Source: Ruminococcus albus 7 = DSM 20455 (GTDB lineage: Bacteria > Bacillota > Clostridia > Oscillospirales > Ruminococcaceae). From it: a stretch of DNA of 32,000 bases. Shown one piece after another: positions 9,500 to 10,413 of the stretch. Numbering within the stretch: position 1 is the stretch's first letter; every line of letters begins with the position of its first letter. The translations under genes and the position numbers were made by a program. The notes under the pieces are model-generated. The model saw nothing but the letters and a program-made list of their open reading frames with translations. It did no database searches and was not told where the DNA came from. The stretch lies in assembly GCF_000179635.2 (NCBI RefSeq), contig NC_014833.1, positions 2,550,001-2,582,000 on the forward strand. Reading direction: 5' to 3'.

Positions 9500-9639
9500 A
9501 GTAATGTTCCTTTCATAAGAGGATTTTAGCCTTTGAGTGGTGGCTAATGACCTTTCCTTATATTCCTTGTTGGGGTTGTCATTTTTCGTGAAACGGCTCT
9601 ATAACCAGTAAAAATGGTCATCTAAACCGTTAGAGCCTG

Positions 9640-9747
9640 TTACGTACTTGTCGAGAGCATGGCAGCCGAAATAAGTAACGATCCGGCAGCGGGTATGAGC
9701 TTCTTCCTTGTGGAAGACTTCTTCTTAGTGTTTATATTAGCTTTCAT
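9640..9747 (-). other. Leader-only mini-ORF, i.e. a 5' fragment copy of the major subunit gene (35 aa: MKANINTKKKSSTRKKLIPAAGSLLISAAMLSTST*)
   Basis: Hand translation of the minus strand. It has its own RBS (AGAAAGGATAA). It aligns with residues 1-35 of the major subunit and stops 2 codons before the predicted FA|WFT cleavage motif. Confidence 0.6.
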
Positions 9748-9866
9748 AATCATTATCCTTTCTTATAAGAATTTTAGCTTGCGGTAAGCTAATCACCTAT
9801 CATAACTCTACGTTAAAAATCGAATGAGAAAAGAGCTTAATCCGTCAACTATTTGGTATCAACGAG

Positions 9867-9971
9867 TTAGGTCGATGTTGCAAGCATCGATGCGGAAATC
9901 GCAAGCATACCTGCCGCGGGAACTATCTTCTTAATAGTATTGTTCTTCTTGTTTTTAGTATTAGCTTTCAT
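9867..9971 (-). other. Second leader-only mini-ORF, also a 5' fragment copy (34 aa: MKANTKNKKNNTIKKIVPAAGMLAISASMLATST*)
   Basis: This is the inner part of track ORF 9867..10076. ATG 9971 is preceded by GAAAGGAAAA. The track's longer N-terminal extension runs into the promoter/5'UTR and is rejected. It stops at the same relative position as the other mini-ORF. Confidence 0.6.
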
Positions 9972-10067
9972 AGTCATTTTCCTTTCATAATAGATTTCGA
10001 CGCCACGACCGCCGATGGTCCAAAACTTCCACGAAACAAATTGTTTTGTGTTTTTTAACTTGACTAT

Positions 10068-10096
10068 ATTATACATGATTTTGTTATCCGTGTCAA
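10068..10096 (-). promoter_or_regulatory. Perfect consensus sigma-A promoter driving the leader mini-ORFs and the major subunit
   Basis: The minus strand reads TTGACA (revcomp of 10091-10096)-17 nt-TATAAT (revcomp of 10068-10073). Confidence 0.75.
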
Positions 10097-10413
10097 GCGT
10101 TTTCTATTTTATTCATATTTTTAACTACCAAAATCAGTTAAATGCACAAAGGCGGTAGACTTTGTTGTGCAGATTTTCCAGTTTATTGCTTAATTTAACG
10201 TCGATTAGTTACAAAGTGATATGATTTAACAAATTTATATGTGTCCAAACAGCACATTTCAATGATCGGTATTTTGTTAAGTGCAATATATTGGCATTTA
10301 ATATTTTTTAACATTTTATCATTTATACGGCTAATCGTACATTATTTAAATAAAAGATTAATGCAGCCGTTAAATAATAATTAATTAAATCTATAAAAAA
10401 TACCCAATTTCGA

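Follow-up and report, generated by a model that had tools for sequence, protein, structure and literature searches.

Why should a gene for a surface-fibre subunit be preceded, behind a single promoter, by two short open reading frames (ORFs) that encode a signal peptide and then stop at the same position? The question is raised by Ruminococcus albus 7 = DSM 20455, in a stretch of 32,000 nucleotides (nt) of contig NC_014833.1 (positions 2,550,001 to 2,582,000 of the forward strand, assembly GCF_000179635.2), which is called here the window and is numbered from its first letter. On its minus strand, read 5' to 3', a perfect promoter is followed by three copies of a Shine-Dalgarno (SD) sequence, GAAAGGA, an ATG, a lysine-rich N-region and the motif PAAG..(I)SA.ML.TST; the third copy starts an intact gene for a protein of 363 amino acids (aa), while the first two, mini-ORF1 and mini-ORF2, are closed by TAA. 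A preliminary description of the window had reported the three copies, the two stops directly after TST, the promoter and the hairpins, and all of them are present on re-examination. The leader is organized as follows.

10096 to 10068, minus strand: host promoter TTGACA-17-TATAAT, a 12/12 consensus match, identical across all same-strain assemblies
9971 to 9867, minus strand: mini-ORF1 (copy 1), MKANTKNKKNNTIKKIVPAAGMLAISASMLATST, 34 aa plus TAA
9866 to 9748, minus strand: spacer 1, with a hairpin at 9792 to 9774 and the SD that precedes mini-ORF2
9747 to 9640, minus strand: mini-ORF2 (copy 2), MKANINTKKKSSTRKKLIPAAGSLLISAAMLSTST, 35 aa plus TAA
9639 to 9500, minus strand: spacer 2, with hairpins at 9637 to 9595 and 9547 to 9526, plus an SD
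9499 to 8408, minus strand: intact 363-aa subunit gene (copy 3), starting ...MLATST-FAWFTMNK, with its own SD and signal peptide

The TAA of both mini-ORFs falls at the Phe codon of FAWFT in the full gene, and the three copies, compared pairwise, have DNA identities of 66-78% and protein identities of 65-82%. The promoter, of the sigma-70 type, drives the whole leader and whatever subunit gene sits behind it.

The explanation that we favour, with a probability of about 0.8, is that the mini-ORFs are the cut-off front ends of a resident subunit gene, produced when a mobile element inserted at the boundary of the signal peptide, downstream of the host promoter. It starts from observed features: the junctions with their overlap of 2 nt, sites both empty and occupied, a 460-aa gene restored in frame, the inverted-repeat ends and the adjacent recombinase genes. 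In the proposed mechanism the leader would be a stack of two attL-type junctions. The left end of the element, named ME1, would carry a promoterless but complete subunit operon, made of a 5' untranslated region (UTR), SD, signal peptide, 363-aa gene and downstream genes, and ME1 would have inserted in the resident 460-aa gene at the TA between the TST codon and the Tyr codon of YAWFT. The host would keep promoter, ribosome-binding site and signal-peptide codons, and the first base of the element, A, would complete the TAA that ends mini-ORF2; the displaced body of the 460-aa gene would sit at the far end of the element, next to the recombinase genes. Precise excision would restore the 460-aa gene, both states being found in otherwise identical DNA. 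The resident 460-aa gene, together with spacer 1, would have arrived likewise in a still older gene, generating mini-ORF1, and the element arm at that place would since have decayed. The mini-ORFs are probably translated, given their intact SD sequences and start codons; their peptides are most likely by-products, not selected products.

The position of the break emerges from assemblies of the same strain, which were retrieved with the exact 363-aa protein and with a 69-aa ORF containing mini-ORF1 and which agree fully with the window on one side of one point (loci are designated by L and a number). L041 and L043-L045 match the window from 13576 to 9641 with 0 mismatches, and L032, L033, L035 and L037 match it from 9642 to 5408, again with 0 mismatches and with other left flanks. 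The left and right blocks of identity share just 2 nt, an overlap of the size expected for serine recombinases.

9642 to 9641, minus strand: crossover dinucleotide TA (attL), where the two identity blocks overlap

Assemblies sharing 10,123 nt of host flank with the window part company after ...ACAAGTACG-TA. L051 equals the window across 19,763 nt, while L050 is 100% identical to L051 over 10,123 nt and differs from it from the first base after ...ACAAGTACGTA. In L050, L052, L053, L054 and L056 the DNA of mini-ORF2 continues in frame as TST-YAWFTMSREVEV, leading to an intact 460-aa subunit (...TST-YAWFTMSREV). Mini-ORF2 is thus the signal peptide of the resident 460-aa gene and the left arm of attB. 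Its stop follows from the crossover: TA is completed to TAA by the first base A of the element, and to the Tyr codon of YAWFT where T comes next. The stop position shared by the mini-ORFs marks a junction of site-specific recombination: equal stops had been held not to be the outcome of random decay, and this is borne out, the cause being a fixed crossover point and not selection on the peptides. The 363-aa gene has TTC and not TA at its own signal-peptide boundary (TST-FAWFT).

The left end of the element was found with three left flanks: mini-ORF2, a MacB gene cut at 221 aa, and an intergenic region by YfhO. The same TA is present at the MacB and YfhO junctions and at the right end of ME1. 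For the YfhO location, a strain with 98.7% identity has the sigma70-TA-YfhO site in its empty form, and homology to L033 begins at TA; the YfhO protein is 93% identical to those of named R. albus strains. Sample SRR4055046 contains both the intact 460-aa gene behind the promoter (L046/L056) and the YfhO-ME1 junction (L033). For the MacB location, in the R. albus 7-type assemblies (L032, 2192-2860) the element is flanked by a MacB permease gene, which is cut at codon 221, and by the 460-aa body. Protein P0271, of 647 aa, reads MacB(1-221)...DIMT followed by YAWFTMSREV..., which is the junction predicted for the element-free site; the cluster of the 460-aa subunit holds, beside this 647-aa MacB fusion, two proteins of R. 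albus 7, namely a truncated MacB of 222 aa and a body of 420 aa that lacks the signal peptide. The MacB-460 arrangement implies an earlier rearrangement between two target sites. Four independent contigs (L027, L028, L029 and L055) end within 0-3 nt of the TA junction, and the NCBI scaffold L049 has a gap (10437-10566) directly after ...GTACGTA and resumes with ...AAAGCGATA-TA-TGCC; such breaks at TA suggest that the sequenced populations contained the integrated and the empty state side by side. The sequencing runs of the strain are SRR4055030, SRR4055033, SRR4055041-46, SRR1168526/7 and SRR3314035. The four junctions can be recognized by the following k-mers.

attL junction: ACAAGTACGTAACAGGCTC
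attB junction: ACAAGTACGTATGCCTGGTT
attR junction: AAAGCGATATATGCCTGG
attP junction (predicted): AAAGCGATATAACAGGCTC

The 27 nt behind the stop of mini-ORF2 (TAACAGGCTCTAACGGTTTAGATGACC) are identical in every relative with this junction, and represent one end of a mobile element.

9642 to 9616, minus strand: left end of ME1 (P' arm), TA-ACAGGCTCTAACGGTTT-AGATGAC-C, 100% conserved in all relatives with the junction

The right end of ME1 was found in L061, as ...CCGTTAAAGCGATA-TA-TGCCTGG, where it abuts the 460-aa body deprived of its signal peptide. It is preceded by genes for a primase, a DUF5906 protein, two large serine recombinases (512 and 545 aa) with a 289-aa recombinase-domain protein between them, and an AAA/PDDEXK protein; both large recombinases contain Resolvase, Recombinase and Zn_ribbon_recom domains and lie about 2 kb or less from the right end. 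Read outward from TA, the two ends form an imperfect inverted repeat, in register, with TA-ACAGGCTCTAACGGTTT-AGATGAC on the left and TA-TATCGCTTTAACGGTAT-AGATACA on the right. The motif AGATGAC is located at +20 to +26 from TA in the left arm of ME1, in three flanks of silent subunit bodies (bodies A and B, and L023) and in the tail of L030, while the right end of ME1 has AGATACA and the L014 flank lacks the motif. Co-mobility is demonstrated for 9642 to 5408 only, by 100% identity with L032, L033, L035 and L037; the two ends likely belong to one element, whose size, summed from loci, would be at least 27 kb, and the ME1 recombinases would be the enzymes that catalyse the event. A promoter scan detected no promoter-like site in spacer 2, which points to a dependence of the 363-aa operon on the host promoter. 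Spacer 2 is the element-borne 5' UTR: the distance from stop to ATG (9642 to 9500) is 143 nt in all variants but one (142 nt in L015), with conserved ends and an unalignable middle. A 25-codon ORF within it (9621-9544, minus strand; ATGACC...GGTCATTAG) is open in 3/4 diverged variants; as a candidate it was dropped, being broken in L015, shifting frame between variants and having no good SD.

PLSDB, searched with the window, returned no match, and a scan of JGI metagenomes for the 24-nt arm gave 3 loci only; in one of these, L030 (4431-4813), the arm TAACAGG... is joined to the flank of a relaxase-like gene. Behind the signal peptide of L030 lies a third junction type, TST|AT-GCATATGATAACAAAAT-AGATGACC; the body of the major gene is missing and the next subunit gene comes directly behind. 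A scan of IMG/VR for the arm motif gave 2 hits, one encoding GSNGLDD, neither of them similar to any locus examined, and these were set aside as chance matches.

Mini-ORF1 is unchanged in all same-strain assemblies, and a similar junction can be read behind it.

9869 to 9834, minus strand: junction behind mini-ORF1, TA-ACTCGTTGATACCAAAT-AGTTGAC, with AGTTGAC at 9850 to 9844, that is +20 to +26 from TA

The tail of mini-ORF1 may be read as a decayed element-side (P'-type) arm. In relatives, TST-LLVDTK(ELMD) followed by a stop is found where mini-ORF1 stops directly after TST, and the unit formed by mini-ORF, tail and spacer 1 stands ahead of intact genes for 404 and 405 aa, with a signal peptide that matches mini-ORF2 (and is identical to it in L023). 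Spacer 1, the 5' UTR of the resident 460-aa gene, is 96.6% identical to the L023 spacer, located before the intact 405-aa gene. By analogy, mini-ORF1 is probably an older, fixed scar of the same kind, which delivered spacer 1 and the present resident gene. Silent bodies may tell of a comparable past: in L050, where the element is absent, inverted signal-peptide-less bodies (341/352 aa and 371 aa) flank 532-aa and 677-aa large serine recombinases at 11500-17545, with a type I restriction-modification (R-M) HsdR gene next to them. This sibling recombinase pair, 51% and 44% identical to those of ME1, adjoins silent bodies near the resident locus, and these look like displaced bodies from earlier events, a "graveyard" of sibling elements.

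Several points weigh against the insertion reading. No contig spans both ends of ME1, the left one being in the window and the right one in L061, and the attP junction of an excised circle is absent from the assembled loci examined. The Logan runs are possibly not pure cultures. The MacB-460 hybrid site of R. albus 7 type implies extra rearrangements beyond a single insertion. At the mini-ORF1 junction no variation is seen, its origin being argued from a 6/7 motif match at the right offset and from analogy. Finally, TA is palindromic and would let either orientation join, so that inverted silent bodies beside recombinase genes allow an inversion run by the host.

This last point leads to the alternative that survives best, although it is an unlikely one: host-controlled antigenic or phase variation of the shufflon type, in which domesticated serine recombinases would shuffle subunit bodies or cassettes behind one promoter and signal peptide, a mini-ORF being the state with a self-contained cassette. 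The L050 layout is also readable as a possible inversion system, with two inverted signal-peptide-less bodies that flank a large serine recombinase pair 1-7 kb from the promoter locus and share a YAWFTMS-coding repeat with the expressed gene; a similar layout of silent bodies is found in L023 and L014, and one signal peptide can, in different genomes, be fused to different bodies. Against an inversion model stand the empty YfhO site, the MacB-460 fusion and the right end of the element, which point to insertion and excision. No inversion product is present in at least 10 same-strain contigs, which display only the insertion and empty states; moreover, the element also occurs in unrelated places, inside the MacB gene and in the sigma70-YfhO spacer, and the primase, DUF5906 and triple recombinase genes at its right end are typical of selfish elements.

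A further alternative, which we consider very improbable, is that the mini-ORFs are selected units, either upstream ORFs (uORFs) that stabilise the mRNA or tune its expression, or uncleavable peptides that act on SipW, on the membrane or on Sec. Beside the intact SD sequences and start codons, it can appeal to the constraint on the H-region, the same in four mini-ORFs, which differ there by 4-13 synonymous and 0 non-synonymous changes (proportion of non-synonymous differences, pN, 0; of synonymous differences, pS, 0.24-0.78), and to a hairpin that lies shortly before each SD, with a single compensatory change (TTAGCTT/AAGCTAA against TTAGCC/GGCTAA). However, when the site is empty and in other genomes these codons encode the functioning signal peptide of an intact gene, and this accounts for both the constraint and the SD. 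Every first-position type of mini-ORF is found, too, at the N-terminus of intact ...TST-YAWFT... subunits, whose bodies are sometimes quite different. In other strains identity jumps at TA, from 77-88% in the mini-ORF to 100% in the next 250 nt; such a jump is to be expected where host DNA lies beside a recently spread element, and selection on the peptides is not needed. The hydrophobic core would still be in the ribosome tunnel at termination, which makes force sensing of the SecM/MifM type implausible.

Distribution among relatives also speaks against a selected peptide. A mini-ORF is present in 1/13 loci of related species, all Ruminococcus-like (L007 only), and absent in 12/13. A mini-ORF profile retrieved 13 short proteins of 33-59 aa from public data, and 6/13 end directly after TST, the others ending with TSTLLVDTK, TSTLLVDTKELMD, TSTWQALTV and TSTYH; the tails of the window itself, read between stops, are LVDTK (behind mini-ORF1) and QALTV (behind mini-ORF2). 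What is conserved is the break of homology to the full gene after TST, the stop codon itself being variable. Thus, the equality of the stops stated in the preliminary description holds within the window and does not extend to relatives. Its two functional proposals, a uORF and a SipW-titrating peptide, gain nothing specific from these data: the orphan mini-ORF is gone in the empty state of the same strain, is missing from 12/13 loci and has a variable tail and stop, and every first-position type is found on an intact subunit as well.

The hairpins themselves, GGCTCTA/TAGAGCC (9637 to 9595), TTAGCC/GGCTAA (9547 to 9526) and TTAGCTT/AAGCTAA (9792 to 9774), were confirmed. Folding z-scores for leader and spacers range from +1.6 to -2.1, the RNAalifold consensus has 0 covarying pairs out of 28 predicted, and an Rfam scan of 9300-10500 at E <= 10 gave chance matches only; neither a riboswitch nor an attenuator finds support here.

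That the mini-ORFs are what is left of paralogous subunit genes in tandem, after deletion of their bodies, is hardly credible: tandem full-length subunit genes do occur in L003 and L005, but neither spacer is homologous to the 3' ends of subunit genes or to the regions downstream of them, the 460-aa body has been moved and not lost, and elsewhere unrelated DNA adjoins this very junction base. The relic idea of the preliminary description therefore survives in part, as mini-ORF2 is the 5' end of the 460-aa gene; deletion as its mechanism does not, since the body has been displaced and sister assemblies contain the intact gene.

Returning to insertion and excision, a more general proposal, on which we see about equal chances for and against, is that a family of serine-recombinase elements in rumen Ruminococcus targets the boundary between signal peptide and mature protein in the gene for the major fibre subunit. 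Such elements would bring a promoterless replacement operon read from the host promoter, their integration and excision would reversibly switch the surface fibre, and repeated rounds would stack mini-ORFs upstream and displaced bodies downstream.

The literature searched contained no description of this system. Surveys of programmed inversion make no mention of it, and the one citation of pRUMAL02 concerns a type I R-M inverton (PMC7672463). The phenomenon is a variation on known gene-interrupting serine-recombinase elements, in which a surface-fibre operon is swapped behind a captured promoter. Among gene-interrupting elements with large serine recombinases are skin, with SpoIVCA, in sigK and SPbeta, with SprA, in spsM of B. 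subtilis, and the comK prophage of Listeria, an example of 'active lysogeny'. In these as in ME1, the element lies in a host ORF, precise excision restores the frame, the core is of 2 bp and the recombinase genes are at one end; here, by contrast, the target is a domain boundary, a replacement operon is read from the promoter of the interrupted gene, the subunit is swapped and not just switched off, and the scars are nested. Elements with tandem recombinases in Firmicutes, such as SCCmec with CcrAB, Tn4451 with TnpX and Tn5397 with TndX, likewise possess two or three tandem large serine recombinase genes at their end, a dinucleotide core and secondary targets, whereas ME1 has a surface-fibre operon as cargo and a homologous resident gene as preferred target. 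In integrons, attI and the Pc promoter capture and stack promoterless cassettes, usually of one gene, by means of a tyrosine recombinase and folded attC sites. Promoterless cargo placed site-specifically behind a strong resident promoter and stacked in succession is common to both; here the recombinases are of the serine type, the element is likely of at least 27 kb and the target is within a coding sequence.

The vsa system of Mycoplasma pulmonis and the mba system of Ureaplasma employ tyrosine recombinases. In both, one expression site holds a promoter and the 5' end for the signal peptide, to which site-specific recombination directly behind it joins alternative bodies, and silent copies without a signal peptide are present (PMC3047005). 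They are inversion systems of small genomes, with silent genes devoid of a start, while the event at this locus is the insertion or excision of a large element, the first gene of which possesses a start and a signal peptide of its own, hence the stop and the mini-ORF. The secretion-monitoring uORFs SecM, MifM and VemP resemble the mini-ORFs in being short upstream ORFs that start with a signal or transmembrane segment ahead of a secretion-related gene. The locus is not a member of this group: here there is no arrest segment behind the hydrophobic core, the stop and tail are unconserved and the ORF is gone in the empty state of the same strain.

With this reading, a puzzle about small peptides or uORFs becomes a testable mechanism, in which an element appears to use a conserved coding boundary as attachment site and to capture a host promoter. 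If switching is active in culture, a cellulolytic rumen bacterium would have a simple means of altering one of its major surface structures, a matter of relevance to adhesion, phage receptors and competition between strains; active switching would also explain variable subunit bodies behind a constant signal peptide. The sites may be of use to recombinase engineers, for their TA core, the distal AGATGAC motif 17 nt away and the B-type arms TATG....GTTTAC. For annotation, tandem "signal-peptide-only" ORFs ahead of a gene for a secreted protein should be regarded as possible attL scars.

As to the subunits themselves, no Pfam or NCBIfam match was found for these proteins, even at E <= 10, and a 45-sequence profile of the subunit gave no match among PDB sequences; the AlphaFold model of the subunit is poor, with a mean predicted local distance difference test (pLDDT) score of 47.9, too weak for use. 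From the gene neighbourhood and the AWFT motif we infer a SipW-dependent (TasA-like) fibre subunit. The surroundings of the leader comprise the following regions.

9642 to 1, minus strand: left part of ME1, with the 363-aa gene, four genes (339, 336, 262 and 363 aa) and a giant ORF
8358 to 8332, minus strand: GC-rich hairpin CCCGCCG...CGGCGGG plus TTT, read by eye, its loop exceeding the scanner limit of 8 nt
9643 to 19763: host flank, with an EAL protein, a 239-aa protein, SipW, an McrB-like ATPase, a DUF2357-SipW fusion and others

From its sequence and position, the hairpin at 8358 to 8332 is likely the terminator behind the 363-aa gene. Past it, promoter-like sites (11/12 and 10/12 matches) are present at 8278-8230 on the minus strand, and because of them transcription of the subunit genes further down may be independent of the major gene. 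The element-borne operon is closed by the giant ORF, at 4219-1 on the minus strand, which stays open over 1410 aa or more in the window and measures 3750 aa in L051.

The host flank is the same with and without the element. A second perfect TTGACA-17-TATAAT promoter, at 10414-10442 on the plus strand, serves the operon of the EAL protein, the 239-aa protein and SipW, so that two 12/12 promoters stand back to back within about 350 nt. SipW (12032-12703) matches the sigpep_I_arch model with 94.1 bits (cutoff 51.85) and the Bacillus SipW model with 108.8 bits, below the 190-bit cutoff of that model. It is followed on the plus strand by an McrB-like AAA protein (12736-14316) and by a 989-aa fusion (14379-17348) with a DUF2357 (McrC-like) N-terminus and a SipW-type signal peptidase C-terminus; lengths of 983, 986 and 989 aa for this ORF are a gene-calling artefact, the DNA being identical. 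It is unusual for a restriction-like module to be paired with a signal peptidase, as here, with a stand-alone SipW adjoining.

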